From an uncultured archaeon (GTDB lineage Archaea > Asgardarchaeota > Heimdallarchaeia > Heimdallarchaeales > Kariarchaeaceae), in assembly GCA_964645535.1 (NCBI GenBank), contig CAZYCQ010000008.1:3013-67012 (forward strand): a stretch of 64,000 bases of DNA. The letters are read 5' to 3'. The notes beneath the pieces are model-generated. The model saw only the letters and a program-made list of their open reading frames with translations. It ran no database searches and was not told where the DNA came from. Below, in pieces: positions 29,859-62,987 of this stretch. Position 1 is the stretch's first letter; each line of letters starts with the position of its first letter. Both the position numbers and the translations under genes were made by a program.

Positions 29859-29860
29859 AT

Positions 29861-44021: not shown

Positions 44022-44942
44022 ATGGATAGGGCAATTGCTCAAGCACCTGCAACAATTGCAAATGTCTGTGTTGGTTTCGACATTCTTGGCTTTGCAGTCC
44101 CTATTCTGAAGGACACAGTCATTGTTTCGAAAGCAAGTGAAGGGGTAGTTATCAAGAAAGTTGTTGGAATGAATCTGCCCACAGAAGCTAGGGAAAATAC
44201 CGCGGGTCGTGGTCTCCAAAAAATGATTGAAGTGCTTGATCTCCCATTTGGGTTCGAGGTTGAAGTCAAAAAAGGAATACCTTTGGGTTCAGGTCTCGGC
44301 GGATCGGCAGCTTCGGCAGTAGCTTCCGTGGTAGCTGCAAATGCACTTCTGGATCGCCCTCTGCCAAAGGATGAGTTATTTCAATTTGCATTGGTTGGAG
44401 AGAGTGCAGCTACAGGTGGAGTTGTGCATGGAGATAATGTTGCAGCAGCCTTGTTGGGAGGATTGACCATGTGCCTCCGTCCAAAAAGCGAAGATAAAGA
44501 CTTAACTGCTTTCTCTCTTCCAATACCAGATATCCATTGTGTCATAGTTCATCCGGATCAAGTAATAGAAACAAAAGAAGCACGGAAAATACTTGCAGAG
44601 CAGATTCCCCTCAAAGATCACGTCAATCAATCCATGAGATTGGCCGCATTCATGATGGCGATTTTTACAGAAGACCTTACCCTTCTGGGCAATTTTTTTG
44701 AGGACATCGTGATCGAGCCGCAAAGGGCATCACTGATTCCTTCCTTTTACAAATTAAAGGAAGTAGCAGTACGAAATGGGGCACTTGGATTTTCAATTGC
44801 AGGAGCAGGTCCTACAATGTTTGGATGGTATCGAACCTCAGAACAGGCACAAAAAACTCGACAATTGTTTGAAAATATGGGGTTTCAATCATGGACTTGC
44901 CAAATCGACAGGCAGGGAGCAACAGTCATTCATTCAGAATAG
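44022..44942 (+). CDS. thrB: homoserine kinase
   Basis: GHMP kinase motif KKGIPLGSGLGGSAASAVASVVAAN. N-terminus APATIANVCVGFDILGFAV. About 306 aa. Confidence 0.9.
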   Translation: MDRAIAQAPATIANVCVGFDILGFAVPILKDTVIVSKASEGVVIKKVVGMNLPTEARENTAGRGLQKMIEVLDLPFGFEVEVKKGIPLGSGLGGSAASAVASVVAANALLDRPLPKDELFQFALVGESAATGGVVHGDNVAAALLGGLTMCLRPKSEDKDLTAFSLPIPDIHCVIVHPDQVIETKEARKILAEQIPLKDHVNQSMRLAAFMMAIFTEDLTLLGNFFEDIVIEPQRASLIPSFYKLKEVAVRNGALGFSIAGAGPTMFGWYRTSEQAQKTRQLFENMGFQSWTCQIDRQGATVIHSE

Positions 44943-46027: not shown

Positions 46028-46064
46028 ATATCTGGATTTTCTGAGCCGTTAAAAAAATTCATCA

Positions 46065-47360: not shown

Positions 47361-49702
47361 TTTTGTCTCCTTCGGATCAGGAGAATCAGGGTCCCCATCA
47401 TTAGAAGAGTGGTTATTGGCAATCCAATTCCTCCAGTTTCGGTCGGAGTTGTTTCAGAAGTGATGGCATTGGATGTTCCGGAAAAGGTCGAGGATACTGA
47501 AGAAATGTCAATGTTAAACCCACTAAGCAGGATTAGCTTTGCATATCCATCCAAAGTCAGGGAGAGTTCGTTGCCATCCATAAAATAGGTCGCGTTTCCA
47601 TTCAGGACATCTACAAGAACTGCATTTTCTGGAAGATAGGAATCGTTAAGGAAAATACGTACTCTTTTGGAGTAAGGGTCACGATTGACGACGACAACCG
47701 CGTCAGGATTGTCAGCATTGGCGAGATGCCTATAAAAGGTCATGACACCATCCTGTGTATCCTCGGGAATGAGAAAATCACCTTGTCGAAGGACAGGATA
47801 GGATTTCCTGACATGGATCAGTTTTTTGTAGAAATCCAGCATGGTTGTATTCATTGCATCCCATGGAAAAGTTCCTCTTGTTCCAGGATCACCGAGACCT
47901 TCCATTCCCACTTCATCACCATACCAAATAACCGGAGTTCCGGGGAATGAGAATTGAAGAGTTGCCGCAACAAGAACCAAATCAGAATTGCCATCAAGAA
48001 CACTGCGGACCCTAGATCGATCATGATTCCCGAGGTTTACCCAAAGGGAATAGAAGGCTTCTTTGGGATAATTTTCTTGGATTGCACGCATCAACTCGGC
48101 ATATGTAGAATCCAAATAATTTCCCCGTATCCAGTCAAGAGTGTTGAATCGGAAGGGCATGTTTTGGGTACCGTCATTTTGGTCACCAGTAAGCCATTGG
48201 GTTGCCCTTTCCCAGATCTCACCAATAACAACTGCATCAGGATTGGTGGTCTTAACAGTATCACGAATGGCTCGGTTCACCAGACGACTGTTTTGCCCAT
48301 CTTGGTACATATTGTTGACATCCAACCGAAATCCATCCACACCATGACTCATCCAATAATCAAAGATATTGTTTGGACCGGTGACCAACTCCTCCAAGGC
48401 AGTTGTTCCTTCATAAATTATTGTTGGGATGTGTTTCAATCCGAACCATGCGTCATAATCTTCATTGTAATCATAAAAACGGAACCAATCATAGTATGGG
48501 GATTGAAATGGATGTTCAAATGCACCCCAGATGTCAGGATAATAATCAGGGACATTGAACCCTTGGGCACGTTCAAGATCGAAAATATTTTGGTTCTCAT
48601 ACCTTTGGAAATAAACTCCTTGTGCAGAATGATGGTTGATCACAGTGTCGTAGATGATTTTGATGCCATTCTCTTCCAAAGTCGATGAGAAATTATCAAA
48701 GAACTCCATGCTCAGAGTGTAGTTGTTTAATGGTCTTCCTCCATCCCTTCCTGCTAAAACACCATAATAGCTGTCCAATACGCGATAATCATCTACGGAA
48801 TAGCCATGATTATCTGGAGCCTCTGTAAAGGGATTAAACCAGATGAAATCAACTCCAAGTTCCTTGAGATAATCAAGTTTTTCCATTACCCCCTGAAGAT
48901 CACCCCCGAAATAGTCATACCCACCTTGAGGCTCTTCATCCCAAGACTGATGTTTTGTTACATAAACTCGCGGTTCATCATCATTGTCCATTATACCATT
49001 TCCGTTTGAATCCCATTCATACCAAACCACATCCCCGCTTGAACCATCACCGACAGGATCATTGGACAAATCTCCATTATAGAATCGATCTATGAAGATT
49101 TGGTACCCCACTGCATTTTTGTGCCATTCAGGGGTTGTGAAACTCGGATCATAGAAAACAATGGCATAATCTCCTTCAGAATCATGGGTATCGGTAACTC
49201 TTCCAACCCCTCCAGTCTGATAGCCTCTGTTATCCTCAAATTGAGATCGAACTACGTCATCATTATAGTAGTCGGTATCTGTTCCATCAGTAAGCAAGAA
49301 AGCATAATAGATGTCTGTTGGTTCGTCAGGACTGGGAAGTGTTATTTCCCAATAATCATATGTAGAATCTGAAGAAGTTATGGACATCGGGACATAATTA
49401 TCTGTTCGTTTTACATTGTCCCAATATTTCAATTGGACGCCTGTCAGATCATTTCGATAGGACCGAATCCTGAGGGTCACATCAGTCCCCACAGGCACTG
49501 CACCAGTAAGCTGTGTTCCCCAACCAGGATTTCTGTAGAATGGGTCTCGAGAATCGTGCAGGATACCATCCCATTCAACATTGTTGTCGTTTGATGCAAT
49601 ATGGCTTTTAACAATTGCCAGTTTATTGGTGGCAAAACCACTAGGGAGAGAGGCAAGCAAGCCTATCAACAAGAGAATTGCAAAAGATTTTTGATTCTTC
49701 AT
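47348..49702 (-). CDS. secreted, C-terminally anchored GH13 alpha-amylase family enzyme (neopullulanase/cyclomaltodextrinase-like)
   Basis: Signal peptide MKNQKSFAILLLIGLLASLPSGFA. GH13 regions I-IV: DTVINHHS, GVDGFRLDVNN, VVIGEIWE, LGNHDRSR. C-terminal S/T-rich linker, then TM LPITTLLMMGTLILLI, then RRRQNQSR. Confidence 0.9.
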   Translation of the reverse strand: MKNQKSFAILLLIGLLASLPSGFATNKLAIVKSHIASNDNNVEWDGILHDSRDPFYRNPGWGTQLTGAVPVGTDVTLRIRSYRNDLTGVQLKYWDNVKRTDNYVPMSITSSDSTYDYWEITLPSPDEPTDIYYAFLLTDGTDTDYYNDDVVRSQFEDNRGYQTGGVGRVTDTHDSEGDYAIVFYDPSFTTPEWHKNAVGYQIFIDRFYNGDLSNDPVGDGSSGDVVWYEWDSNGNGIMDNDDEPRVYVTKHQSWDEEPQGGYDYFGGDLQGVMEKLDYLKELGVDFIWFNPFTEAPDNHGYSVDDYRVLDSYYGVLAGRDGGRPLNNYTLSMEFFDNFSSTLEENGIKIIYDTVINHHSAQGVYFQRYENQNIFDLERAQGFNVPDYYPDIWGAFEHPFQSPYYDWFRFYDYNEDYDAWFGLKHIPTIIYEGTTALEELVTGPNNIFDYWMSHGVDGFRLDVNNMYQDGQNSRLVNRAIRDTVKTTNPDAVVIGEIWERATQWLTGDQNDGTQNMPFRFNTLDWIRGNYLDSTYAELMRAIQENYPKEAFYSLWVNLGNHDRSRVRSVLDGNSDLVLVAATLQFSFPGTPVIWYGDEVGMEGLGDPGTRGTFPWDAMNTTMLDFYKKLIHVRKSYPVLRQGDFLIPEDTQDGVMTFYRHLANADNPDAVVVVNRDPYSKRVRIFLNDSYLPENAVLVDVLNGNATYFMDGNELSLTLDGYAKLILLSGFNIDISSVSSTFSGTSNAITSETTPTETGGIGLPITTLLMMGTLILLIRRRQNQSR

Positions 49703-49778
49703 TGATCAAAAGGAAGTAAAATCCAATATGATTAAAGCTCTTTTCTGATTCAAAGGAAAAATGTTTGTTTTGCCTCTA

Positions 49779-50696
49779 TCAAAGTTTTTTCTTTTTATTC
49801 AGAGCCATTGCAATAAAAGTGGGAATTACCAGTGCAGGGTAAAAACTCGCATCTGCTTCCAATGCGGAGGATGAGGTCTTTGTTACTTTTGGAGTGGTGA
49901 TGATCATCTGTGTAAGATCTTTATTGAGGGAATTTGCATCCGTAATTGCGGAAAACCAAGCGTCCATTGTCAATTGAATGGCTAATTCAAGCCTCTCCAC
50001 AAGAATTTCTGATGTTTCATTGTAGAAAGTCCCCCAATAGTCACCACTTTCTTTTGCTTTGTCATCTGCCTCCAATAGAAGGGGAACAACAGCCAATCCG
50101 CTTGCAATTGCAGCTTTGGTAGCATTATAGATATCTGAGACATACTTGGGTTCCCCTATTTCTACCTGTTGCCAGATGGCTTCCCAATATTTGTCAGGAA
50201 GAATGGTTTCAAACCGGGAGTGGATACCATCATTCCCAGTCAATTGTCCATCAAAGTTAGAAGTGGCATGGAATGGCTGTGATGCATCCGACAGGTAATG
50301 GGACAGTGATCCCATTAGAAGAAGGACTTCATTTCCCTGGTTCTGTTTGATGGCCTCAACTAATTTCAAGGAAGTGTTCATTGCTGCCCATGAAACAACA
50401 CCTAACGAGTAGTTTTCAGAGGTTGAGGAAACATTGATGTCTGTATGGGGAATATCTGAATCATCATAATGTCGCGGTCTTTCATTCGGATCCTTATCCT
50501 TGTTTTCGTCCGGGAAGATAGAGCCCTCACGTAACTCTTGGACATGAGCTTGTAGCCAAGTTTTCCAATTTTCTGGCAATTTTTCAATGGCTCTTTCTGC
50601 AACTTCCTTATGAACGGAATACCCCCAAGCATTTGCCGGCATTAACATACCCTGAAGCAAGAAAAGGAGATAAAAGGCAATAAGATATTTTTTCAT
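49779..50696 (-). CDS. secreted S1/P1 nuclease / zinc phospholipase C superfamily protein, C-terminally anchored
   Basis: Signal MKKYLIAFYLLFLLQGMLMPANA is followed by WGYSVHKEVA (mature N-terminal Trp and His, as in P1 nuclease/PLC zinc sites). HYLSDASQPFHAT. C-terminal TM YPALVIPTFIAMAL then NKKKKL. Start set at ATG 50696. Confidence 0.7.
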   Translation of the reverse strand: MKKYLIAFYLLFLLQGMLMPANAWGYSVHKEVAERAIEKLPENWKTWLQAHVQELREGSIFPDENKDKDPNERPRHYDDSDIPHTDINVSSTSENYSLGVVSWAAMNTSLKLVEAIKQNQGNEVLLLMGSLSHYLSDASQPFHATSNFDGQLTGNDGIHSRFETILPDKYWEAIWQQVEIGEPKYVSDIYNATKAAIASGLAVVPLLLEADDKAKESGDYWGTFYNETSEILVERLELAIQLTMDAWFSAITDANSLNKDLTQMIITTPKVTKTSSSALEADASFYPALVIPTFIAMALNKKKKL

Positions 50697-50786
50697 CGAC
50701 GGAGGCAGGAAACACTTCAACTTAAAGATCATGTCAGCGGCCATACCAGATTACAAAATTCAATACAATTCGAATATCTTTAAATT

Positions 50787-52808
50787 ATGCAGAATTTTCA
50801 CTACATCATGAACTTTCGAATTTTGGTTTGGTTAATTGCCATTTTGTTGATTGGAACAACAGGCAATACCTTAGGAAATAACCACGTCATGTCAATCACT
50901 TATAAAAGTACGGGAATTTCTGACATGAGTGCGCAGTTCCTGAATTCATCTGCAATCCCCTTGTCTCCCCTTGCAGATGTAGATCGAGCGGATTTGGCCA
51001 ATTATACGGCAACCATAAATTTCGATCCCCAAACATCCAACTATACCGTTCAAATGACCATCAGCTTCAGAAACCCGGTAAATGAGCTACACACCATCCC
51101 ACTCAACCATTGGCTACTTTCATTCACCGATGAATTCCTGTCCAGCGCACAGAAAAACGATCGAGGGATTTACCCCAATGGCTTTGATGACATTTTTCTT
51201 CAATATGGAAACATTTCGGTCAATGGGAGCCCAGTCAATTATTCAATTGTTTTGACACATCTTGAACTCTTCCTTAATTCCACGAACTTTGATCCCATTC
51301 CTCAAGGGGAGATTGTCACAATTTCTATGGAATTTAATGCAGATGTTCCAAATTCTGCGAGAAGATATGCTAAGCTCATCGGACAGGATGGAAGCGTGGT
51401 CTATGCCATGCCCCACATCCTTCCCTTGCTCCCAGTATATGAGGAAGGGCTGTGGAGAGCAGATCCTTTTGATTTTCGGGGAGAACCATTCTATTCTGAA
51501 GCATCGTTCTTCAGAGTTGAAGTCATAACCCCAATTGATTTTGTTTATGGGGCTACAGGCCATATCGTTTCCGAACAAACAGACAATGGGACAAAAACAA
51601 GAATTTATGAGGCGTATCCAGTCCGGGATTGGGCAATGGTCGGATCTCTGAATTACGAAATGAGTGAGGGAATCGTTGCCCTACCTAGTGGAAGGGAGGT
51701 CTCCATCAAGTCGTTCTATCTAAGTGGAGACAGTGCATTTGGAATTGAACAGAAAAGATATGGAGTTGAGGCAATAGCCTTTTTTTCAAGAGAGACAGGT
51801 GTTGAATATCCCTATGATGATTACGTCCTTGCCCAAGTTGTAAGTGTGTTCTATGGGGGAATGGAATATCCCCAACTGGTTTTGAATGCAGCAAGTTCAA
51901 GTGGCGTGGTTGTTCATGAAACAGGCCATCAATGGAACTGGGGAATCATCGGGATGGATCAGCCCCACGAAACATGGCTTGATGAAGGGCTGACCTCGTT
52001 TTGGACAGATGAATTCCATGTTTTTGATGGAACTGAGACACGCCAAAGTCTTGGCAACAGATACAATAAGGCATACATCAAAGACTTCAAACAGTCGCCA
52101 GACATCATCAACCATACCATCTATAATTCCACAGACTATGTTCTGATGAGCTATTACAAGATGCCTGCGGTTCTCCATGATCTGCAACATTTGATCGGGG
52201 ATGACCTCTTTAAGTTGATTCTCAAGAACTTCTATAGGGAAAATAGATTTGGAATTGGAAAATCCACGGAAATGATTGACGAATTCGCCCAATCCCTGAA
52301 TGGCGATTGGATCTATGATTATTTTGATGCCTTTTTGAATACTCATTTTATCCCCCACTACAAAACAAAAATTTCCGTGTTGAAATCCAATGCCACCTTT
52401 ACCACAGTACAAGTCAACTTCACTGATTTTTGGCCAGGAGTCCCGCAACGAATTGAACTGGATACGTCCGCATTTCCTGCACCTTTTGAAAAAAGCATTC
52501 TTGTGGATGGGAATATCAGTGGAGTGTGGGAAGTTGAATCTCCCTATTTTGAGGATTTCTATTTTGATCCACTAAGACAGAATCTTGCAACCTACAATCA
52601 AAGATATTATTATGTTCCTCCACTTTACCCATCAGAACCTTCAACGAGGATAACCACAACCAGTGAAACCGAAAACTTTACATCAAACGATGTTTCGTCG
52701 ACTATTCCTTCAGAATCCCGATTGGCAATTTCTTTTTCCATGGTGATGGGTTCAACCATTATGGCGATAATTGCAAGACGAAAAAAGGCTATTTTTTCCG
52801 CGCATTGA
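50787..52808 (+). CDS. M1-family zinc metallopeptidase, secreted and C-terminally anchored
   Basis: GGMEYPQL (GxMEN-like) followed by VVVHETGHQWNWG...WLDEGLTSF (HExxH-18-E). N-terminal signal/anchor ILVWLIAILLIG. C-terminal S/T-rich linker, then LAISFSMVMGSTIMAIIA, then RRKK. Confidence 0.85.
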   Translation: MQNFHYIMNFRILVWLIAILLIGTTGNTLGNNHVMSITYKSTGISDMSAQFLNSSAIPLSPLADVDRADLANYTATINFDPQTSNYTVQMTISFRNPVNELHTIPLNHWLLSFTDEFLSSAQKNDRGIYPNGFDDIFLQYGNISVNGSPVNYSIVLTHLELFLNSTNFDPIPQGEIVTISMEFNADVPNSARRYAKLIGQDGSVVYAMPHILPLLPVYEEGLWRADPFDFRGEPFYSEASFFRVEVITPIDFVYGATGHIVSEQTDNGTKTRIYEAYPVRDWAMVGSLNYEMSEGIVALPSGREVSIKSFYLSGDSAFGIEQKRYGVEAIAFFSRETGVEYPYDDYVLAQVVSVFYGGMEYPQLVLNAASSSGVVVHETGHQWNWGIIGMDQPHETWLDEGLTSFWTDEFHVFDGTETRQSLGNRYNKAYIKDFKQSPDIINHTIYNSTDYVLMSYYKMPAVLHDLQHLIGDDLFKLILKNFYRENRFGIGKSTEMIDEFAQSLNGDWIYDYFDAFLNTHFIPHYKTKISVLKSNATFTTVQVNFTDFWPGVPQRIELDTSAFPAPFEKSILVDGNISGVWEVESPYFEDFYFDPLRQNLATYNQRYYYVPPLYPSEPSTRITTTSETENFTSNDVSSTIPSESRLAISFSMVMGSTIMAIIARRKKAIFSAH

Positions 52809-52840
52809 CCCCATTTTTCTAAGTTAGTGATCTTTTTCAG

Positions 52841-53473
52841 ATGTTTTTTGCGTATTTTTTGCAACACATTATCATCGCAAAGCATAAAGGGAACAGAACT
52901 GTAGGACGGATGTTGACAGATCAATCGGTTTCTGATTTTTTGCGAATGGGTGATTTTATCAACCAAATTTTTGTTGTGCACAAATCTGGGATTGTCATTC
53001 TTTCTAGGATTTATCAGCAAAGTTGCATTTCCTCAGACCCTCAACTTATTGGAGGATTGCTGAGTGCAATGTTGACTCTGGTTCAACATGACACGAACGA
53101 TACACGTTATTGCAGTTGGGAAATGGATGGAAGGCACAGATTGAAAGATATCGGGATGTCCTGCTCCAGATGGTTTATCGGCACCCATGGAGACTTCACC
53201 ATTGCAACCCTAGTTCCCTATAGCTCACCCTTGATCACTTCAAACAGATATGATATCATTCAGAAAATCAATCAAGCCATAATTGCCTCTTTTTCAATCT
53301 TCATCGAATTTGGGACAGATGGAATAAACGGAAAGGTTGAAGCCATTCAGGATTACACAATCGAGTTTGGGAACACACTCGACAGTCTGATATTTGAGTC
53401 CCTGTATGACAATCTGGGTATAGAAATAGGATTTGAAAAGGGGAAGCATTATGATGTACAGAGACTAGTATAA
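52841..53473 (+). CDS. small longin/roadblock-like domain protein
   Basis: INQIFVVHKSGIVILSRIYQQSCISSDPQLIGGLLSAMLTLVQHD...LKDIGMSCSRWFIGTHGDFTIATLV has the beta-beta-alpha-beta-beta-beta pattern and signature helix shared with neighbouring proteins. The start is uncertain (52841, 52910 or 52946). Confidence 0.5.
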   Translation: MFFAYFLQHIIIAKHKGNRTVGRMLTDQSVSDFLRMGDFINQIFVVHKSGIVILSRIYQQSCISSDPQLIGGLLSAMLTLVQHDTNDTRYCSWEMDGRHRLKDIGMSCSRWFIGTHGDFTIATLVPYSSPLITSNRYDIIQKINQAIIASFSIFIEFGTDGINGKVEAIQDYTIEFGNTLDSLIFESLYDNLGIEIGFEKGKHYDVQRLV

Positions 53474-55927
53474 TGAATGAAAAAGGTTCAGAATCTCATT
53501 TTCCTTGATGAGCTTCCCATCAGCCACACCAACCTCCATAAGAGGGAGCAAGGAACTGATGAGGGTTTGGAAAGCTAATTGGTCTGTTTTTTGTCGAGGA
53601 GTTGTGAACAGAATCACATCAAAATCGCCTACTGTTTCAATGAAAATGACGGAATGCCAGAAGAAAATGGCATTTACGTTCTCCTTGGAATTACGTATTT
53701 CTTCGACAAGACCGTTGATGCTGGAGATAAAATGCTCTACAAGGATTGAAATGAGCTCTTGGTTTTTTTCTTTGATTGAAGATCGAAAAATGTATTCCCC
53801 CTTGTATTTAATGAAGAGGTCAGTACTCTTTTCATGCCCTTCTACTCCAAAAAGAGTGGGAGAAAATATCAATAGGTCTTCAGCACTCTTGCGTATTAAG
53901 GTATAAGGATCGGTAATGTTCTGAATTATCGAATAATTTGAATCTTTGAGAAAGAAATTGAGGATTTGTATGAAGTCATAATTTTTTCCGTTAAGGATAT
54001 GCCATTTGACCAAATCACGACATCCCTTGAAATTATCATCTGCACGACGTGTCTCACCAATTTTAAGATAGAAGAGTCCCTTGATGAATAGAACATAGGT
54101 ATGCAAAAGCTTCTGACCATATCTTAACGAGATGGTTTCCAAGATTTGTATTGCAGATTCAAGACGGGTACGCAGAAGAGAATATTCCCTGGTTTCTTGT
54201 TGAACTGTCCCTAGGGATTTAAACCACATACGGACAATGTTGAAATAATAGTTGATTAATGAAGGAAGTTCTCTTACGATTTTCTTTTTGAGGAGAATTG
54301 AAATATCAATATTCATTATTTCCATAAAGAATTTTTGTAGATTCTGTGTGTACTCTTGATAGTTTGTCTCAAACCACTTTCTTGAAGCCAATGCAACAGG
54401 TTGAGAACGGTCATTCACCAAAAGGGAATGGATTTTCACCCGCTTGGCCATATTTGCGTCCCAAAGTACATTGAGGATAAAGTTCAAATCAAATTTCGGA
54501 TAGTCTTGGCGGAATTCGTCAAGTGATTTGATCCTGATTGAGGGATTGAGGAACAAGATTGTTTCAATGAATTTGTCAATGTCAGGTGTTCTTTTAGAAG
54601 GTACAATGAGATTGAAGGTGAGATAGTGAAAGGGATCGATATTATCGGGGTGTTCAACAAGAAGGAAACGATTTGAAAGGTAAGGCAATTGTTGCAGACT
54701 TGCAATTCGGATCCATTCAGGAGTTCCTTTTTCAAGAATAAACACAATATCGGGAAAGGAGGGATGTTGACCCTTGGCACGAACCTTTTTCCCTGAAAGT
54801 TGACTGAATTCAGGGGAGACCGGGAGGGGATCGCCTAAACCAAAATATCGGTAAGAATAGGCCATCAGATCACGATCCAGATGTTCCTCGATTATGGAAC
54901 CTTGGTGGAATTCAAAATGTCTCAGAACATTTAGAGCAAAACAAATCAATCGTAAATCCTGTGTTTTGTTGATTTCTTTTGAAAGCAAGGTGAATGAAAA
55001 TTCGTCATGATGGAAATTAAGGATTCTTCCAGTTTCAAACCAGACATCCTCCAACCATTCGTCATCATCATAAATTTCCTTTACCAATTCTGAAAGGGCA
55101 ACCACGAATGTTCCCAACAATGTTGAAAGGTTCCGTTTTCCTCCTGCATTGAAACCAAATAATGTTAGACTTTCTTTGGAAATGGATATCGATTCATAGG
55201 GATGTTTGGGAGGGGGAATGAAATAGGGATTGGTGATGAAAAGCATCATCCAATTGAATTGAAAGAGGTTTTCAATTATGGGATCAATATCAGCCAAGCT
55301 TAATTGTTCCTGTTCAAGATAAGATAACCCTATTTGAAATTCCTTCGTGAAGCCCTGTGTAAGTTTGCTTTGATCAAACAGAAGAAGCCAGTCCAAAAGT
55401 TCTCCTGCTTTTATTTTCAATTGGGAGGTCAGCTCTTTTCTCCCAAAACAGTGATTGACCAATCCTTGAATGATGAGGAGGTATGCACAAAGAAGAAACT
55501 GAGAATGCGTTTCCAATTGATCGTGTAATTCTCCGATAGCAACATTCAATAGATCGACATAAACGATGTCATTTTGTTCCTTAAGGAGTTGATAGAGTAT
55601 TCTGCCCAAGGCAATTCGCCCCTCAATCAACCAATAGGTCTCTTCATTTCGAAAACTTCCCAAATCCATAATCGAAAATGCATGTAAGGATTCTGTCGAA
55701 GATATTTTGTACCCAAAGATTTTCTGGAAGTCAATTGAACAGGAGTCAATCAATTGCTCTAGATCTGCAAAAGAATAGTCGGATGTAGAGGATTTTTTTG
55801 AGGAACTAGACGAGTTGGGATAAGCTGAGGCAATCTGATTATTGAAGCACTTTTCATTAAAAAGTTGAAAATATTTATTGTCTTGTATCAATCCCACCAC
55901 ATAGGAAAGATTATCACAACCTATCAT
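53465..55927 (-). CDS. 820-aa protein: two tandem units of helical-repeat region plus longin/roadblock-like module (paralog of 56977..58431)
   Basis: Modules are centred on TLLGTFVVALSELVKEI...VWFETGRILNFHHDEFSFTLLS and on ILVEHFISSINGLVEEI...AIFFWHSVIFIETVGDFDVILFT. The helical regions resemble the 484-aa protein (RRADDNFKGCRDLVKWH vs ENAEGTFLAADQMKQWF). Confidence 0.6.
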   Translation of the reverse strand: MIGCDNLSYVVGLIQDNKYFQLFNEKCFNNQIASAYPNSSSSSKKSSTSDYSFADLEQLIDSCSIDFQKIFGYKISSTESLHAFSIMDLGSFRNEETYWLIEGRIALGRILYQLLKEQNDIVYVDLLNVAIGELHDQLETHSQFLLCAYLLIIQGLVNHCFGRKELTSQLKIKAGELLDWLLLFDQSKLTQGFTKEFQIGLSYLEQEQLSLADIDPIIENLFQFNWMMLFITNPYFIPPPKHPYESISISKESLTLFGFNAGGKRNLSTLLGTFVVALSELVKEIYDDDEWLEDVWFETGRILNFHHDEFSFTLLSKEINKTQDLRLICFALNVLRHFEFHQGSIIEEHLDRDLMAYSYRYFGLGDPLPVSPEFSQLSGKKVRAKGQHPSFPDIVFILEKGTPEWIRIASLQQLPYLSNRFLLVEHPDNIDPFHYLTFNLIVPSKRTPDIDKFIETILFLNPSIRIKSLDEFRQDYPKFDLNFILNVLWDANMAKRVKIHSLLVNDRSQPVALASRKWFETNYQEYTQNLQKFFMEIMNIDISILLKKKIVRELPSLINYYFNIVRMWFKSLGTVQQETREYSLLRTRLESAIQILETISLRYGQKLLHTYVLFIKGLFYLKIGETRRADDNFKGCRDLVKWHILNGKNYDFIQILNFFLKDSNYSIIQNITDPYTLIRKSAEDLLIFSPTLFGVEGHEKSTDLFIKYKGEYIFRSSIKEKNQELISILVEHFISSINGLVEEIRNSKENVNAIFFWHSVIFIETVGDFDVILFTTPRQKTDQLAFQTLISSLLPLMEVGVADGKLIKENEILNLFHSLY

Positions 55928-56163
55928 GATTTCTGATTAAATAAATTTATTCTACAACCGTATGGGGAATTTTTGATTTCCGATGCGTCCGATGGAACTT
56001 TTAGAAAACTGTTAAACGCAAATATAACCATCATTTCCGATGGAAATGTGGCAATGCAAATGACTTGAGAATTTGAGGGTAGAAATAGTATCTTTGCGCA
56101 ATTTGAACCCCCTTTCCGTTCAATATTTACTTGTTTCCTAAACTTATGAGTGAAATCATTCAT
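55924..56163 (-). CDS. possible small ORF (79 aa) bridging the lipase and the 820-aa gene
   Basis: It overlaps the lipase stop by 8 nt and the 820-aa start by 4 nt (ATGA). The composition is unremarkable, so this could instead be an intergenic or promoter region (AATAAATTTATTTAAT lies 9-24 nt upstream of ATG 55927). Confidence 0.25.
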   Translation of the reverse strand: MNDFTHKFRKQVNIERKGGSNCAKILFLPSNSQVICIATFPSEMMVIFAFNSFLKVPSDASEIKNSPYGCRINLFNQKS

Positions 56164-56941
56164 TCCTCATAATGTGATCAATGACTGAAATGTAGGTTTC
56201 AATCATATGCTCTTCAAAAGAAAGGGTGCTCAGAAACTTGATGGCAGATTCCAATGTTGATTCCAGTTTATCAAACCATTTAGGGTTTATAATGATCCTT
56301 TGATTGTTATCAAGCAAAACTTGTGTTAGGAGATGACGATAGCCAAACCCTTTGGGGGGGACTTGACCGATAATATCTTTGTCATTCAAGATGATGAAAC
56401 TTTCATCGATCTCTTTGGAGAATTTCCTTTTGAACCATCGGTTCCCAGTCCTAGGCATGCCAAAGGACCAGAATTTAATCGGCAACTGAAATCTTTGTTT
56501 AAGAGACATTGCCGCGATTGAGCCAATGCCACCTCCCATGGAATAGCCAATTACCTCAATTTCTGCAAGAGAAGGCCGTAATGCCTTCAGCTCCTCTATT
56601 TTTTGATAGATTTCAGCTTCAACAGATCGGAAGGCTTGAAAAAAACCGGCATGAACCTTTGGTCGAAAGAAAGGACATCGTTGATGTGGATAGGGAGTCA
56701 GAAGGATATTGATATTGGTGAGAAAATCCTGGGGAGAATCTGTTCCCCTGAAAACAACTAGGATGGATTTGGATCCTTCAGCGATATACCCTTGGATGTC
56801 GCTCTTTTTATTATCAAACACATGAAACAGCTCATATCCCAATGGTCGAATTCCTTCTTCAATCTGTTGTGGAGATGTTTTGAAAGCCAAAAGGCACAAC
56901 GATGCAAATTTTTTGGCAGAGGCTAAATCAAAGGAGTTCAT
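56156..56941 (-). CDS. class 3 (triacylglycerol-type) lipase family alpha/beta hydrolase
   Basis: ILVVFRGTDSPQDFLTNI, nucleophile elbow EVIGYSMGGGIGSIAA (GxSxG), and ILNDKDIIGQVPP (Asp region), as in Lipase_3 proteins. No signal peptide. Confidence 0.8.
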   Translation of the reverse strand: MNSFDLASAKKFASLCLLAFKTSPQQIEEGIRPLGYELFHVFDNKKSDIQGYIAEGSKSILVVFRGTDSPQDFLTNINILLTPYPHQRCPFFRPKVHAGFFQAFRSVEAEIYQKIEELKALRPSLAEIEVIGYSMGGGIGSIAAMSLKQRFQLPIKFWSFGMPRTGNRWFKRKFSKEIDESFIILNDKDIIGQVPPKGFGYRHLLTQVLLDNNQRIIINPKWFDKLESTLESAIKFLSTLSFEEHMIETYISVIDHIMRNE

Positions 56942-56976
56942 TGATTGAAAATATGCTTCCCTAAATATGAAGGTTT

Positions 56977-58431
56977 TCAGATACCAAAGTATGACTTTGC
57001 CAAGTCATTCAGTTCGTCAATCACTTCATTGGGGATATAATTATATGAGGTCACATCATATTTCTTGAAAACATCTACAGCCTTTGTGGAAAATTCCTTA
57101 AGGGCGACCTTATCCCGTATTTCCTTGTTCATTGTGAAAAGAATGAAGTTCAACTTTCTGACAGGGTAAACATAAATTGCACCTTTTTTGAAGTAGATTC
57201 GTTCTAAGCTCTCACTGTCACCAAATTCATTGACCAATGTCATCAGTGCATTGACGAAGTTCCCCAACAGTATTGGGAAATCCTGATTGGCAGATGAGAT
57301 ATTAGAACGGTAGTACAATGTCATCATGTTAGTTGTTATGATAATGGAATGTTGTAACCCTTCGGGGATAAGTTCATCAAGCCCAAAAAATGGTTCTTTT
57401 AACCAAACAAGTTCTTCAACGGGAATAGAAAGAAGTGCATCGAGTGCATAAAGAAAATCCTTTTCGGCCTCATCCATGTCAAGAATCTCATTTTCCAGCA
57501 AAGAAAGATAGAAGAAGCCGATGGTATCAAAAATATTCACGACGTCTATTTCTGAATCATTGTGCTGAAACCATTGTTTCATTTGATCTGCGGCAAGAAA
57601 TGTACCCTCTGCATTCTCACGGTCATGGATTGAATGGTAGATCAATGACCTGACATAAAGGGAAAACATCATGAGAATTTTTTGGTTGAAATACGTCCCA
57701 ATTATTTCAATCTGGTTCAGAGCATTGAAGATTGTGCTCAAGTAACGGGTTTCCTTATTAGGTTGGTATACACCATTTTGGTAAAGCACTTTTGCTGCAA
57801 GACCTATCATTGCCTTCAATCCATTGACATAATCAATCAAGAGGTTGGCCAATTTCCTTTTTTCCTTGACCTCATTGAGTCCAAGGGCAAGTTCAAGGAA
57901 ATTTGCATCAATTACCGTTTCAAGATATTCCTCCATTAATTGTTGATCCAAGGCATCTCTAACTCTTTGAACCTTGACACGTTGAGCCAAAAAATTCTCT
58001 ATCATTGTGGATCTGGAATATCGAAGGAGGTATTCATCATGCAATGATAAAAGATAGTTGCCAATTTGGGTGTCGGTATTATCAATCTCGAAGAAACCAT
58101 GAATTAGTTCATCTTCTTCCATATTCAGAATTGTGGGTTTGATGCCTTCGTCGACATTGATGAAATATCGATATCGATCAGGATATCGGGACTTGAGATG
58201 GGATAGAAAGACCATGGAATTTGCAATGAATTCATCCTCCCAATCTTTCAGATCAATCAAGACACAAAAGGAAGGGGTTTTGCCGACCAAAAAGGCTGCC
58301 TCATATCCAGAGGTGGTCGAATAAATCGGGAATTCATCAATTTTTGGAGCTTTTACAAGATCATGTACTTTCAAATGGATAATTGACAATCTTTCGATGA
58401 AGACACACCTTCCTTGAACCAATAAACACAT
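56977..58431 (-). CDS. 484-aa protein: N-terminal alpha/beta region, helical-repeat middle, C-terminal longin/roadblock-like module
   Basis: C-terminal module FPILLGNFVNALMTLVNEFGDSESLERIYFKKGAIYVYPVRKLNFILFTMNKE. The middle ~250 aa are predicted helical (TPR-like spacing). The start is uncertain (ATG 58431 or a downstream TTG). Confidence 0.6.
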   Translation of the reverse strand: MCLLVQGRCVFIERLSIIHLKVHDLVKAPKIDEFPIYSTTSGYEAAFLVGKTPSFCVLIDLKDWEDEFIANSMVFLSHLKSRYPDRYRYFINVDEGIKPTILNMEEDELIHGFFEIDNTDTQIGNYLLSLHDEYLLRYSRSTMIENFLAQRVKVQRVRDALDQQLMEEYLETVIDANFLELALGLNEVKEKRKLANLLIDYVNGLKAMIGLAAKVLYQNGVYQPNKETRYLSTIFNALNQIEIIGTYFNQKILMMFSLYVRSLIYHSIHDRENAEGTFLAADQMKQWFQHNDSEIDVVNIFDTIGFFYLSLLENEILDMDEAEKDFLYALDALLSIPVEELVWLKEPFFGLDELIPEGLQHSIIITTNMMTLYYRSNISSANQDFPILLGNFVNALMTLVNEFGDSESLERIYFKKGAIYVYPVRKLNFILFTMNKEIRDKVALKEFSTKAVDVFKKYDVTSYNYIPNEVIDELNDLAKSYFGI

Positions 58432-58463
58432 AGGTTTTATAATAAAAAACCTTTGTGGAAGCT

Positions 58464-59420
58464 TTATTTCAGATTGGCATCATTTCTTAAACCATCCATT
58501 AAGTTTCTGATATCTACATTACCACCGCTAAGTATCAAGCCGATACGGAGATTTGAATCAGCCTCAAGTTTATGGAGAGCTGCAAGAGAAACAGCACCGG
58601 ATGGTTCCACGACGAGTTTCATGCGTTCCCAAAGAAATTGCATCGCATCAATGATTTCTTTTTCCGAAACGGTGATGATGTCATCAACATATTTAGTTAT
58701 CAAGTCAAAGGTTAATGGAGAAAGACTTGTTCTCAACCCATCGGCGATTGTCTGTGGATTGGTTTGGGGGAGGAGTGTTCCTGATCGGAAAGAACGGTAG
58801 GCATCATCGGCCATCTTCGGCTCAGCACCAAATACTTGGGAAATAGTTCCAGAAAGTTTTGAATAGGCAGATGTACCACTTAAAAGACCCCCACCACCAA
58901 CAGGAGCGATAATTGCATCCAAATTTCCGACTTGTGAGACAAGTTCCATTGCAACAGTTCCTGCGCCCTGAATGACTTTGACATTGTCATATGGATGGAT
59001 AAACACATATCCGTGCTTATCGATTAACTGCTGACAGGTTTGTTCCCTTGCCTCCTGTGTAGGTTCACATTCGATGATGGTTCCACCGTATCCCCTAGTA
59101 GCATCTTTTTTTACTTGAGGGGCGTTGTTTGGCATGACAATTGTTGCTTTTATATTCAAAAGCTTACAAGCGAGGGCAACGGCTTGGGCATGGTTGCCGC
59201 TGGAATGGGTGATGACGCCCCTTTCCCGTTCTTCCTCAGTCAATTGAGAAATGGCATTGTATGCACCTCTGAACTTGAATGCACCCATACGCTGGAAATT
59301 CTCTGCCTTGACAAATACATTGTGTCCAGTTAATTGGTTTAGGGTTCGAGAGGTCATAACAGGAGTCTTATTTGCGATTCCCTCCAATCGTTGCATGGCC
59401 TTCGCAATCTCTTCTAGCAC
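58464..59420 (-). CDS. fold-type II PLP enzyme, threonine ammonia-lyase / serine racemase-like
   Basis: PLP-lysine context KAENFQRMGAFKFRGAYNA, SSGNHAQAVALA, and GGGGLLSG (phosphate loop). At 318 aa it has no regulatory ACT domain. Confidence 0.85.
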   Translation of the reverse strand: MLEEIAKAMQRLEGIANKTPVMTSRTLNQLTGHNVFVKAENFQRMGAFKFRGAYNAISQLTEEERERGVITHSSGNHAQAVALACKLLNIKATIVMPNNAPQVKKDATRGYGGTIIECEPTQEAREQTCQQLIDKHGYVFIHPYDNVKVIQGAGTVAMELVSQVGNLDAIIAPVGGGGLLSGTSAYSKLSGTISQVFGAEPKMADDAYRSFRSGTLLPQTNPQTIADGLRTSLSPLTFDLITKYVDDIITVSEKEIIDAMQFLWERMKLVVEPSGAVSLAALHKLEADSNLRIGLILSGGNVDIRNLMDGLRNDANLK

Positions 59421-59453
59421 AAAGGCATTCTCCCCAATGGATATTTATTCCTT

Positions 59454-60080
59454 TCATTTGCAGGTAGTCAGGAAAAGAGATTTTGGGAGGTAATAATTTG
59501 CCCATCCATGAGAGAGTGTCAGGGAAATTGGATCCAAAATTCCATTGGAACAGGTCTTGTATGAATAGGTAAAGAGAAGTGAAAGGTTAGCATCAACATC
59601 CGCAATGGTCGAATTGAAAAAAAGTGGAACAAGGTAATGGGTTTGATTGTATGATTCTTGCAGACTAAAATCATGGGTTTTCATCAATGCGGTATAGTTT
59701 TGAGTGGACAATGGCGATGATGAAAACTGTGAAGTCAGATTCAGTTTCTGGCCAAATCCAAGAAACTTTAAGAAGAAGGAGTCATTGATTTTCTCTGCAT
59801 CAAGAATAAAATCCTCATTCCCAGAGAATTTGTCATCATCTTCAAGATCTAATTGTACAAAAGAGGGGGTGACTTTTTCATTCATCAGGATAAATGGCAT
59901 TTTGAATACAAATGATGCGGGCGTACTCAATTCAATTCTGATGGCAACCTGTTCATGGTATTGCGGTCTGAAATTCAATAAAATCGAGGGAAGCGAAAGC
60001 ATGGCGACCAACAGAATGACGAAAAGTATTAACACGAGATACGGGCTTTTCAGTTTTTTCAGGGACATCCAACCAATCAA
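59454..60080 (-). CDS. N-terminally anchored hypothetical protein (208 aa)
   Basis: N-terminal TM YLVLILFVILLVAMLSLPSILL followed by a beta-rich hydrophilic domain. No motif recognised. Confidence 0.45.
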   Translation of the reverse strand: MIGWMSLKKLKSPYLVLILFVILLVAMLSLPSILLNFRPQYHEQVAIRIELSTPASFVFKMPFILMNEKVTPSFVQLDLEDDDKFSGNEDFILDAEKINDSFFLKFLGFGQKLNLTSQFSSSPLSTQNYTALMKTHDFSLQESYNQTHYLVPLFFNSTIADVDANLSLLFTYSYKTCSNGILDPISLTLSHGWANYYLPKSLFLTTCK

Positions 60081-60137
60081 CAGGTGTCAGCATTTGAATG
60101 CAGTGTTAGGGATTATGCGAGAGTTTACATAATTTGA

Positions 60138-60818
60138 ATGAAGAATCGGTATGTGTCACTTTCAGGTCTGGCAGATTTTTTTGGAATTCGGGACACAAGA
60201 TACGTGGAATTAGGAATCAAACCCAAATCATGTGGAGGGGGCGAAGAATTCAAATATTTTGCATTAATAGGTGATAAATTCCTTGACTTGGTTCTAATTG
60301 AAAAATTCGGGGAAAAAGGGATCCTGAATACTGGAAGAATTACGAAAAAAATAGCAACCATGGTAAATGCAAGCACATTGGGAAGGGTTGCAAGGAATTT
60401 AGGATTGCACGAATTAATGAAACCCCTTTCACCAAAACATAAGATACATAACAATGAACTAAAGGAAAGTGTTGAAGCCTTATTGGGGATCTGTTATTTG
60501 ATTAACGGGTACGCAAAAGGCTACACCATAGCACAAAAATTGATCGGTCTTCTTGAAAGAAATGCAGTGGAAAGCAATTTTAAGGGTAAAGCCAATGAAA
60601 TTCTACAAAAAAAAGGGAGTGCGCCTGCCAAATATGAAACCATTAGAATTGGAGGAAAGGATCATGAACCAATCTTCCGTTCAACAGCAATTGCCCGACT
60701 TGCGGAAGAGGATATCCGAATAGAAGGAGAACCGATGAAATCAAAGAAAGAAGCGGAACGGGATGCCGCAAAGAAGCTGTTTCATTCCTTAAGAGCCTTG
60801 TTCAGAAATGAGCCCTAG
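60138..60818 (+). CDS. RNase III-like protein with C-terminal double-stranded RNA-binding domain
   Basis: RNase III signature region EEFKYFALIGDKFLDLVL (cf. ERLEFLGDAVL) and ELKESVEALLGICYL (cf. aDtfEAliGAiyl). The C-terminal dsRBD is ANEILQKKGSAPAKYETIRIGGKDHEPIFRSTAI...GEPMKSKKEAERDAAKKLFHSL. Confidence 0.7.
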   Translation: MKNRYVSLSGLADFFGIRDTRYVELGIKPKSCGGGEEFKYFALIGDKFLDLVLIEKFGEKGILNTGRITKKIATMVNASTLGRVARNLGLHELMKPLSPKHKIHNNELKESVEALLGICYLINGYAKGYTIAQKLIGLLERNAVESNFKGKANEILQKKGSAPAKYETIRIGGKDHEPIFRSTAIARLAEEDIRIEGEPMKSKKEAERDAAKKLFHSLRALFRNEP

Positions 60819-62891
60819 CATCTTGAAAATGAAGGTGTAGACAAATGCGAGTTCCTTGAGATAGTCATATCTTCCAGAAGCACCGGCATGACCTGCACCC
60901 ATATTTGTCTTAAGTAACAGGGGATTGCTGTCAGTCTTTGTTGCTCTCAATTTTGCAGTCCATTTGGCAGGTTCCCAATAGTGAACTCTTGGATCATTCA
61001 ATCCGGCAGTGATAAGCATTGCAGGATATTCTTTCGGTTCGACATTATCATACGGAGAATAAGAGAGGATATATTCAAAGTATTCAGGATCATTGGGATT
61101 CCCCCATTCCTTGTATTCAAATGTTGTCAGGGGAATGGTCTCATCCAGCATGGTATTGACCACATCAACAAAAGGAACCCTTGCCACCACTACCTTGAAC
61201 AGATCAGGTCTCATGTTGACCACAGCCCCCATCAACAACCCTCCCGCACTACCACCCATGATGGCCAGCCGATCAGGGGATGTATACTTTTTCTTAATGA
61301 GATGTTCTGCAACTGCAATGAAGTCGGTAAAGGTATTTTTCTTTTTCTTGAGCTTGCCTTCAAGGTACCAAGGCTTGCCCATCTCGCCACCTCCACGGAT
61401 ATGGGCAATCGCGTAAACCATCCCCCGTTCAAGAAAACTGAGAATGGGAGAATTAAATCCAGGATCGATACTGTAACCGTATGAACCGTAGCCATAAAGT
61501 AAGGCGGGAGCGGATCCGTCAAGAGGGACATCCTTACGGTAAGCTATTGAGATAGGGATCTGAGTTCCATCTTCAGCAGTAGCGTAATCCCTTTTTGTCA
61601 CAAATTTGCTTGGGTCAAAACCCTTCACCTCCTCTTGCTTCCGGACAATTAGCTTCTGTTCAGAAACATCATAGTCGTAGGTTATTGGAGGAGTAATGGG
61701 TGAGGAAAAACGGAACCTGTAGTATTTGGTTTCGTAATTTGGATTGCTCCCGGATCCAAGGGCATAAATCTGTTCAGGAAGTTCAATATCATGAAATTCA
61801 CCCTTTCCAACATCAAAGATCGAGATTGCCATAAATCCCCCTTCTCTTTTGAATATTGCCAAGAAATCCTTGAATGCATCAATGCCCACAATTCGGACTG
61901 CGGGATCATGAGGAATAAACTCAGTCCAATTTGATCGATCAATGTTGTTGATGGGACATTTCATGATTTTGAAATTGATGGCATCCTCATTCGTCACAAT
62001 ATAGAAATTGTCTTCATGGTGGGTGATTGAATATTCCACACCCTCTGTCCTCGGAGCAAAAACAGTAAGGGCAGATTGTAAACCAAATCCGGCATCACCT
62101 TTGGGAACCAAGGGGGCAAACCAAGTCTCAGTGGTGTCAGATGAGATGCTTGAAACCATCAGATAACCCTTGCTTCTTGATTTGCCGAAAACAACGAAAT
62201 ATTCCTTGTCCGCCTCCTCATAGATCAATTGATCTTCTTCAACAGCCTTTCCCAATTCATGAAACTTGAGTGCGTAGGATCGATGGATATCATCCAATAT
62301 CGTGTAGAAGATGGCTTTGCCGTTGTTGTCCCATTCAATGGCTCCAGCAACTTCATTGATTTCAGTCAAAATTTTTCCCGTTTCAATATCCTTGATGAAA
62401 AGATCATAGGTTTCATATCCATTCGTGTCAATTGAATATGCCATCAGTTTATGGTCAGGGCTTATTTTCAGTGCCCCCAATCGAAAGTATTCATGACCTT
62501 CAGCATACTCGTTCTCATCAAAAATCACCTCTTCCGGAGATTCCATGGATCCCTTCCTTCTACAATGGATTGCATAGTTCAATCCCTCAACAGTTCGCAC
62601 ATAGTAGAAATAATCATCAATTTGAACGGGAACACTCATATCGGTTTCCTTGATTCGACCTTTCAGCTCCAAGTAGAGTTGCTCCTGAAAAGCTTCGGTG
62701 TCTTTCATGAATGCCTCGGTATATTCATTTTCAGCCTTGAGGTAGTTGATGACCTCTTCATTGTCTTTATCCCTTAACCAGAAATAGGGGTCCTCCAGTT
62801 TTCGCCCGTGAATCTCTATGACCTTAGGTTTTTTCGGGGCTATCGGAGGGGAGAGTTTTTTCCGTAACATAAGACGAGATCGACCATCCAT
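60789..62891 (-). CDS. S9A prolyl oligopeptidase family serine peptidase (oligopeptidase B-like)
   Basis: N-terminal beta-propeller region (DPYFWLRD). Catalytic Ser in LAIMGGSAGGLLMGAV, Asp in GLNDPRV, His in GAGHAGASGR. The start is ATG 62891 or ATG 62870. Confidence 0.9.
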   Translation of the reverse strand: MDGRSRLMLRKKLSPPIAPKKPKVIEIHGRKLEDPYFWLRDKDNEEVINYLKAENEYTEAFMKDTEAFQEQLYLELKGRIKETDMSVPVQIDDYFYYVRTVEGLNYAIHCRRKGSMESPEEVIFDENEYAEGHEYFRLGALKISPDHKLMAYSIDTNGYETYDLFIKDIETGKILTEINEVAGAIEWDNNGKAIFYTILDDIHRSYALKFHELGKAVEEDQLIYEEADKEYFVVFGKSRSKGYLMVSSISSDTTETWFAPLVPKGDAGFGLQSALTVFAPRTEGVEYSITHHEDNFYIVTNEDAINFKIMKCPINNIDRSNWTEFIPHDPAVRIVGIDAFKDFLAIFKREGGFMAISIFDVGKGEFHDIELPEQIYALGSGSNPNYETKYYRFRFSSPITPPITYDYDVSEQKLIVRKQEEVKGFDPSKFVTKRDYATAEDGTQIPISIAYRKDVPLDGSAPALLYGYGSYGYSIDPGFNSPILSFLERGMVYAIAHIRGGGEMGKPWYLEGKLKKKKNTFTDFIAVAEHLIKKKYTSPDRLAIMGGSAGGLLMGAVVNMRPDLFKVVVARVPFVDVVNTMLDETIPLTTFEYKEWGNPNDPEYFEYILSYSPYDNVEPKEYPAMLITAGLNDPRVHYWEPAKWTAKLRATKTDSNPLLLKTNMGAGHAGASGRYDYLKELAFVYTFIFKMLGLISEQGS

Positions 62892-62987
62892 TTTTCATTG
62901 TTTTGGAAACAGACTTTTTGAAAAGTCCATTTATGATCCTTTTCTGTTTAGCAGAAATTTAATAATGAGTGAGTTGAAGGAAATAAC

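Follow-up and report, generated by a model that had tools for sequence, protein, structure and literature searches.

What might a lipase gene be doing between genes for two paralogous longin-like proteins? The question is raised by a minus-strand gene cluster in a 64,000-nucleotide stretch of DNA (hereafter the window) from contig CAZYCQ010000008.1 of an uncultured archaeon of the Kariarchaeaceae (Heimdallarchaeia), in which a class-3 lipase gene lies between genes for proteins of 484 and 820 amino acids (p484 and p820) and a convergent gene encodes a protein of 210 amino acids (p210). An earlier interpretation made from the letters alone (the sequence-only reading) had proposed the cluster as a single operon of a candidate undescribed, eukaryote-like regulatory or membrane-remodelling system in which scaffold proteins with longin- or roadblock-like modules are coupled to the lipase. 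Homology searches and alignments show p484 and p820 to be divergent members of a Heimdallarchaeota protein family typified by predicted response regulators with a receiver (REC) domain, a helical region and a longin-like module. For the locus as a whole, the interpretation as a cluster of paralogous signalling proteins with longin domains, specific to its lineage and set in a Heimdallarchaeota genome, has, in our judgement, an even chance of being correct. The map of open reading frames (ORFs) gave the following genes:

56977..58431, minus strand: p484 gene, an ORF with a predicted degenerate receiver, a helical region and a C-terminal longin-like module
56156..56941, minus strand: class-3 lipase gene, an ORF of 261 amino acids
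55924..56163, minus strand: 79-amino-acid ORF (p79), spurious
53465..55927, minus strand: p820 gene, an ORF with two tandem helical plus longin-like units and no receiver
52841..53473, plus strand: p210 gene, a convergent ORF with a probable true start at 52955

The map reproduced all of the previously given ORF positions, together with the overlaps of 8, 4 and 9 nucleotides between neighbouring ORFs of the cluster; the p484-to-lipase gap measured 35 nucleotides rather than the 36 given before. No hydrophobic transmembrane-type segment was found in p484, the lipase, p820 or p210, and scans of p484, p820, p210 and p79 against Pfam, NCBIfam and PADLOC returned nothing significant. An anti-phage defence system with a lipase effector was rejected, as none of the five had a PADLOC match at E up to 0.1.

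Comparison of a module profile (A7; 22 sequences) with all 82 window ORFs of at least 100 amino acids by hhalign recovered, far over background, exactly the five proteins to which the sequence-only reading had assigned a common module: p484 (probability 99.7%), p820 (99.2%), the tail of the membrane protein encoded at 20012..21073 (81.5%), the partial ORF at 62988 (70.8%) and p210 (21.4%), the next best ORF being at 1.1%. All six helices quoted in that reading were located as well. Represented by an 11-member family profile, p210 matched the module profile at 81.6% (E 1e-5); with the shallow p484 family, the hhalign probability for the p210 family was just 4%, and it rose to 82% after distant relatives had been added to the module profile. 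From its alignments p820 consists of the p484 unit of helical region and module, duplicated in tandem, as had been proposed: BLASTP matched p484 191–445 to p820 547–787 (E 1e-11) and p484 249–484 to p820 142–364 (E 1e-6), hhalign detected two modules, and MAFFT aligned both halves of p820 with the p484 family over the helical region and the C-terminal module. The helical region of p484, which has a conserved NQ..QKIL motif, is common to p820 and to the response-regulator relatives. Orthologues of p820 are P0018, P0019 and a protein of 831 amino acids in the relative L004. The regions concerned are:

57409..57864, minus strand: p484 helical region, amino acids 190–341, all-helical (AlphaFold helices H190-334; alignments A4 and A6)
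56980..57357, minus strand: p484 module, amino acids 359–484, helix ILLGNFVNALMTLVNEF (hhalign A7 99.7%)
54827..55201, minus strand: p820 module 1, amino acids 243–367, helix TLLGTFVVALSELVKEI (hhalign A7 99.2%, E 7e-20)
53471..53836, minus strand: p820 module 2, amino acids 698–819, helix ILVEHFISSINGLVEEI (hhalign A7 99.0%, E 7e-18)
63033..63317, plus strand: longin-like module, N-terminal in the partial ORF from 62988 (hhalign A7 83% for the N-terminal fragment and 71% for the whole ORF; A2 79%)
20039..20308, minus strand: longin-like tail, amino acids 256–345 of the membrane protein 20012..21073 (hhalign A7 82–90%)

In the protein encoded at 20012..21073 (minus strand), six or seven predicted transmembrane segments precede the longin-like tail. 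By prediction this protein is a membrane-anchored paralogue, and it could tether soluble partners.

The fold of the module was read mainly from p210, which AlphaFold and Foldseek describe as a single longin-fold domain followed by two C-terminal helices. The p210 model (core predicted local distance difference test, pLDDT, 80–90) has the order beta-beta-alpha, low-confidence loop, beta-beta, alpha-alpha (E42-47, E52-57, H67-83, E109-116, E119-126, H137-158, H173-192), with low confidence at residues 85–105 between alpha1 and the next modelled strand. All of its top 50 Foldseek matches in PDB were longin or roadblock structures (best E 6e-4; template modelling score, TM (target), at most 0.59), among them AP2 mu/sigma, COPI, TRAPP Bet5/Trs23, SRX, the VAMP7 longin, LAMTOR, MglB and the MK-D1 roadblocks. 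Longin and roadblock domains are distinguished by the N-terminal helix and the C-terminal helices (Tran et al. 2024, PMC10933270), and we took longin topology to be beta1-beta2-alpha1-beta3-beta4-beta5-alpha2-alpha3 with no N-terminal helix. The p210 model agrees with this order and fits longin rather than roadblock topology, because the N-terminal helix is absent and two C-terminal helices are present. The only candidate for an N-terminal helix of the Roadblock/LC7 type, H20-26, falls in a stretch modelled at pLDDT below 50 that precedes the probable start, and Robl_LC7 (PF03259) gave no match at E up to 10; the roadblock structures among the Foldseek matches are fold relatives only. A longin-type fold of p210 is thereby supported at the level of a predicted structure. 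For the p484 and p820 modules the same fold is probable by homology to p210 and from a weak model: the AlphaFold model of the p484 module gave alpha-beta-beta-beta-alpha-alpha (H385-403, three strands, H441-457, H468-482) at pLDDT below 50, and the p484 model had a single TRAPPC match in Foldseek (7b6d_E, E 0.13).

Profile searches gave less. The best match, below threshold, was that of P0027 to Fuz_longin_1 (E 0.0025, 18.4 bits against a cut-off of 26.1); three of the 22 modules each matched Fuz_longin_1 and Intu_longin_1, at E 0.037 or worse. These Pfam hits to Fuz/Intu longin_1 were recurrent and specific, yet placement of the module in a named longin family is not demonstrated. The curated longin profiles (Pfam Longin, Sybindin, Clat_adaptor_s and Fuz/Intu_longin) gave nothing with p210, p484 and p820 themselves. 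PDB sequences were searched with HMMER profiles for the p484 family, the p210 family and the module; no longin or roadblock chain turned up, and the sole match below E 0.01 was to an unrelated 95-residue stretch of Exportin-4 (E 0.006). Likewise, when AP2S1, TRAPPC1, SEC22B and LAMTOR2 were compared with the module and p210 profiles by hhalign, no signal appeared, a comparison that counts as a lead only. The longin/roadblock assignment in the sequence-only reading is partly supported, by the p210 model and by the 82% profile link to p484 and p820, and not by the curated profiles, which were all sub-threshold; the Pfam searches that it had recommended for the modules brought no longin or Robl_LC7 profile over threshold.

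The ancestry of the family became apparent in a HMMER search with a p484 and p820 profile over 1.84 billion representatives, which returned 21 proteins. P0023–P0034 (430–480 amino acids) align with p484 end to end, over the full length of the helical and module regions. Pfam Response_reg was matched by ten relatives (P0023–P0027, P0029, P0031 and P0033–P0035), nine of which passed the gathering score (E 3e-10 to 4e-19); in P0035 the receiver is attached directly to the module. One family member is named ‘response regulator [Candidatus Heimdallarchaeota archaeon]’ at NCBI. The previous description of p484 had omitted a separate N-terminal alpha/beta domain of about 135 amino acids, which the model and Foldseek revealed:

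58027..58395, minus strand: p484 pseudo-receiver, amino acids 13–135, predicted CheY-like fold (AlphaFold pLDDT 70–83; Foldseek REC matches)

This segment has the (beta-alpha)5 arrangement of the CheY-like fold, aligns with the REC domains of family members, and matched REC domains in Foldseek at TM (target) 0.60–0.69 and a root-mean-square deviation of 3–4.5 Å, with weak E values of 0.005–0.2. Pfam Response_reg (PF00072) did not match p484, and a REC hidden Markov model built from the relatives matched the orthologue P0005 alone, weakly. At the phospho-site positions p484 has E13, R14, the retained D63, N92 instead of Thr/Ser and Ile instead of Lys. We regard the domain as a pseudo-receiver because three phospho-site residues are lost: the second of the acidic pair, the Thr/Ser and the Lys. 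It is kept across the p484 clade, even where ORFs were called from a later start; the p484 orthologues number five, with identities of 52–100%. A REC remnant was looked for in p820 and was not detected.

The true start of p484 is uncertain by about ten codons. Its start region (58395..58463, minus strand) shares with L004 (9830-9870) a Shine-Dalgarno-like GGAAGGTG followed by AT(A/C) GAA AGR, and the homologous p484 N-terminus in L004 lacks a canonical start codon. An AT-rich, TATA-like TTTTTTATTATAAAA lies in the 32-nucleotide gap after the PALP gene.

Outside the window, the neighbours of family members point to small GTPases. Four receiver-longin loci were examined, one of them in Heimdall LC_2 (L015), and each contains GTPase genes as well:

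L013 5779-9305: receiver-longin and GTPase region
L014 2906-9344: receiver-longin and GTPase region
L015 6001-9329: receiver-longin and GTPase region
L016 4974-7407: receiver-longin and GTPase region

In all four, the receiver-longin gene directly adjoins Arf/Ras/Gtr1_RagA GTPase genes (1–5 per locus), which lie upstream on the same strand, downstream or divergently, depending on the locus. PAS/GAF histidine kinases were found nearby in three of the four, and the loci are candidate matched kinase-regulator-GTPase sets, judged by gene content. The sequence-only reading had asked whether small GTPase genes co-occur with such proteins elsewhere, and next to relatives of p484 and p820 they do. This adjacency is notable because in MK-D1 longin or roadblock genes generally do not share operons with GTPase genes (Tran et al. 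2024, PMC10933270), and it provides the strongest, albeit indirect, support for a putative GTPase-regulating role of the family.

The lipase motifs reported before (FRGT, GYSMGG and DKDIIGQVPP) are present in the 261-amino-acid protein, which matched Pfam Lipase_3 (PF01764) at E 6e-25 (88.2 bits against a cut-off of 22) and fungal lipases in PDB at E 6e-17 to 1e-13 by phmmer. Ser134 (in GYSMG), Asp187/189 and His203 are invariant in four lipase orthologues, so that the profile is joined by a predicted Ser-Asp-His triad with GxSxG. The enzyme resembles the fungal class-3 lipases of Rhizomucor miehei and Thermomyces lanuginosus and feruloyl esterase A in Lipase_3, GxSxG and the conserved Asp and His; in contrast to them, it has no signal peptide. 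A transmembrane segment and a hydrophobic 19-mer were likewise not found in it. A secreted lipase was rejected on the absence of a signal peptide and a transmembrane segment, and by its residues the protein is an intact, predicted cytoplasmic class-3 enzyme.

Analysis of related genomes revealed the same gene order, PALP – p484 – lipase – spacer – p820 – convergent p210, in L001, L004 and L018, with p484 identities of 52–75%. Co-directional p484 and lipase genes are separated by 35–48 nucleotides in the window (35) and in these three relatives (36–48), and the lipase is probably co-transcribed with p484. Between the lipase and p820, a longer interval was found:

55928..56155, minus strand: non-coding lipase/p820 spacer of 228 nucleotides (four-genome DNA alignment)

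Its counterparts (L001 8474-8738, L004 12101-12333 and L018 7755-8000) bring the length range to 228–265 nucleotides. The spacer contains islands that are invariant in the four genomes, GGGG..TTGC, TT.CA...GAAA..GGT and TTGCGTTTAAC (11 of 11 positions identical), whereas the flanking proteins are just 50–55% identical. It also contains AT-rich, TATA-like stretches; it matched no Rfam family or tRNA, and as a structured RNA its consensus fold was weak (-7.3 kcal/mol). No tRNA gene or Rfam family at gathering score was found across the whole window (1..64000). The spacer is probably a regulatory or promoter region, giving p820 its own promoter; a promoter, an operator or a small RNA may each account for it. 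The single operon of the sequence-only reading is doubtful, because a spacer of this length with conserved DNA islands parts the lipase from p820. The 79-amino-acid ORF had been counted as a member of the unit, and we rejected it as a gene: the L001 and L004 spacers have stops in all three frames at its position, and no gene was called there in L001, L004 or L018.

Conservation of the gene order, which had been put forward as a check, extends to three close relatives and is confined to a narrow clade that is broadly syntenic. The wider neighbourhood in these relatives, comprising an acetyltransferase, peptidase S9, RNase III and PALP, is syntenic too, and a Zn-dependent phospholipase C (PLC)/nuclease-like gene and an M1 peptidase are also among the conserved neighbours. 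All named syntenic relatives and family members belong to Candidatus Heimdallarchaeota or Kariarchaeaceae, including Heimdall LC_2, and a word-indexed search of 5.8 billion proteins gave five relatives of p484, two of p820 and 11 of p210. A search of genome contigs with the lipase matched only two Heimdall metagenome-assembled genomes (MAGs). In a more distant Heimdall MAG (L012), a lipase of 42% identity adjoins the p484-like P0022 (22–31% identical) in divergent orientation, with no p820 beside the pair.

A stable linkage of p210 to the locus was not borne out. Its homologues number 11, and those in other Heimdall MAGs (L007–L009; 42–47% identical) are not linked to the locus. In two of these, L007 (8563-10519) and L009 (8563-10559), the homologue (45–47% identical) lies directly after a complete che operon (CheW, CheA, CheY, CheC and CheD), divergent from cheB. 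We conclude that p210 is a separate single-longin gene and merely a local neighbour. NCBI has the exact p210 sequence, annotated as a hypothetical protein, in a MAG under the label ‘Methanobacteriota archaeon’. Translation probably starts at M39 (window position 52955), which matches most homologues in alignment. The p210 family has invariant C62, C91, H99 and C108 around the low-confidence insertion that separates the longin helix from the strand after it, and these three Cys and one His could form a metal site or a redox switch. p210 also carries a DIGMSCSRWFI motif.

How the parts would act together can be framed by analogy with known longin and roadblock proteins, which serve as dimeric GTPase platforms (MglB, TRAPP, Mon1-Ccz1 and Ragulator; summarised in PMC10933270 and PMC13408092). 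In the explanation that we favour, the modules would pair into dimeric platforms, p484 with p820 or p820 module 1 with module 2, and such a platform would bind a small GTPase whose gene lies in another part of the genome, as an exchange factor or a GTPase activator. In typical family members, phosphorylation of the receiver would control the platform, and this control would have been lost in the p484/p820 sub-branch. The lipase would, speculatively, act as an effector or client, linked to the longin platform through its activity or its recruitment to the membrane. Taken as a whole, we consider this explanation evenly poised between being right and being wrong. Its weakest step is the functional coupling of the lipase with the longin proteins, which is plausible and falls somewhat short of an even chance.

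Several observations weigh against this explanation. Curated longin and roadblock profiles and PDB sequences gave no above-threshold match, and the AlphaFold model of the p484 module is of low confidence. The GTPase partner is hypothetical, because the window encodes neither a GTPase nor a kinase nor a genuine receiver: tblastn with seven Asgard small GTPases and a kinase found nothing across the 64 kb, in agreement with the earlier statement that the unit encodes no GTPase. The response-regulator relatives at the four GTPase loci have no lipase neighbour, and the one lipase homologue that a search of metagenome contigs returned (L017; 30% identical) has no p484-like neighbour. The lipase adjacency may be passive synteny, since the narrow clade also shares PALP, peptidase S9, RNase III and the acetyltransferase. 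If so, p484 and p820 would be longin signalling proteins and the lipase an unrelated housekeeping esterase left beside them by residual synteny, which we hold to be a real possibility, albeit one that is probably wrong. It would account for the conservation of the entire neighbourhood (acetyltransferase, peptidase S9, RNase III, PALP, the Zn-dependent PLC/nuclease-like gene and the M1 peptidase), for the GTPase rather than lipase neighbours of family members outside the clade, and for the solitary lipase of the distant L017. However, a p484-lipase gap of just 35–48 nucleotides between co-directional genes in four genomes does not sit well with it, nor does the adjacency in L012, which has outlasted a local inversion at 42% lipase identity.

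That the sub-branch lost both its GTPase neighbourhood and the receiver phospho-site and gained a lipase neighbour would also be expected if the modules bypassed GTPases altogether, with p484 and p820 as non-catalytic regulatory or scaffold subunits that bind the lipase directly, for instance to gate its lid or to tether it to the membrane protein with the longin-like tail. The presence of several longin-module paralogues in the same window, one of them membrane-anchored, is in line with this; however, no precedent for a longin-lipase complex was found in the literature on Asgard, lipase and longin, where a search combining the three terms returned nothing. We regard this alternative as improbable. 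More improbable still, to the point of being barely credible, is a proto-coat or adaptor-like assembly, in which the helical region and the longin domain would correspond to an alpha-solenoid with an AP sigma/mu-type longin and remodel membranes. Helical repeats do precede each module, and the top Foldseek matches of p210 are the longin domains of AP2 mu/sigma and COPI zeta/delta, but TRAPP, SRX, LAMTOR and MglB match p210 equally well, the helical region is merely about 150 amino acids long with no detected adaptin similarity, and the ancestry of the family is that of a response regulator.

Comparison with known systems placed the family within a described protein class. About 130 families of the Roadblock/longin superfamily with lineage-specific domain shuffling, and longin fusions to two-component domains (‘NPRL2-like longin’), have been reported in Asgard archaea (Liu et al. 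2020/2021, 10.1101/2020.10.19.343400). The class is already known, since these fusions combine longin and two-component domains, and the label ‘undescribed’ was too strong. P0023–P0035 have the same make-up as the fusions of Liu et al., being Asgard proteins with longin and receiver domains and patchy, lineage-specific paralogues; in contrast, the receiver of p484 is degenerate, p820 is a receiver-less tandem duplication, and its receiver and longin domains, where both occur, are separated by a helical region. A specific similarity to NPRL2 could not be shown here, the sub-threshold Pfam hits being to Fuz/Intu longin_1, and a lipase neighbour is mentioned neither in the paper of Liu et al. nor in the others found. 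In Myxococcus xanthus, the small GTPase MglA is regulated by the dimeric roadblock protein MglB, with the receiver protein RomR in the circuit (PMC13408092). The likeness to this circuit lies in roadblock-fold regulation of a small GTPase with a receiver-domain protein taking part; unlike here, MglB is a roadblock with an N-terminal helix and an unfused receiver, whereas our proteins are longin-like with a receiver that is fused (relatives) or degenerate (p484).

The longins of TRAPP (Bet5/Trs23, TRAPPC1/C4) and of AP/COPI (sigma, mu and zeta) are the best matches of the p210 model (TM (target) 0.45–0.59) and share the strand-strand-helix signature of the quoted helices, but sequence similarity to them was undetected and no TRAPPC3/Bet3-type or adaptin partner is encoded nearby. 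In tri-longin exchange factors, the LD1 heterodimer is the Rab-binding catalytic platform. The tri-longin Rab exchange factors (Mon1-Ccz1, Fuzzy-Inturned and HPS1-HPS4; PF19036/PF19031) are the sole Pfam families recurrently matched by the module, and relatives of p484 and p820 adjoin Rab/Arf-like GTPases; however, the module matches stay below the cut-off (best 18.4 against 26.1 bits), the window locus has no GTPase, and in place of three consecutive longins p484 has one module and p820 two, parted by a helical region of about 330 amino acids. What looks new is the pseudo-receiver and tandem-duplicated sub-branch, its lipase neighbour, and the consistent GTPase adjacency of the parent family.

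Two further observations concern the surroundings. At 49779..50744 (minus strand), 2–3 kb from the cluster, the window encodes a protein that matches both Zn-dependent phospholipase C and S1/P1 nuclease. It has a signal-like segment at the N-terminus and a hydrophobic tail at the C-terminus and is syntenic in L004 and L018; the cluster could thus have a further hydrolase, of lipids or of nucleic acids, nearby. The L017 contig (1946-4358) has TnpB-like ORFs and repeats that translate as FNPLTRFTAFAT, with the look of a CRISPR-type array.

Asgard archaea have many small GTPases and many longin and roadblock proteins, and the pairing of regulator with GTPase is a standing problem; such pairs are hard to predict, as in MK-D1 these genes generally stand outside operons (Tran et al. 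2024, PMC10933270). The receiver-longin loci supply concrete candidate sets of regulator, GTPase and kinase in the archaea most closely related to eukaryotes. A wider proposal, which we offer as a conjecture that is unlikely to hold in full, is that Heimdallarchaeia couple a phosphorelay of prokaryotic type to a GTPase switch of eukaryotic type, with receiver-longins as phospho-controlled guanine nucleotide exchange factors or GTPase-activating proteins for the Rab/Arf-like GTPases of neighbouring genes and with p484/p820-lipase as a derived branch in which a constitutive, pseudo-receiver longin platform recruits or activates the cytoplasmic lipase at the membrane. If true, the closest archaeal relatives of eukaryotes would possess a primitive module for lipid remodelling linked to a GTPase. 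The window locus itself shows a regulator that appears to have lost its phospho-switch, undergone tandem duplication and acquired an association with a lipid hydrolase. Should this association have no function, the locus would be a further lineage-specific expansion within a protein class known from Asgard archaea; if it has one, it would mark an early link of longin platforms to membrane lipid chemistry.

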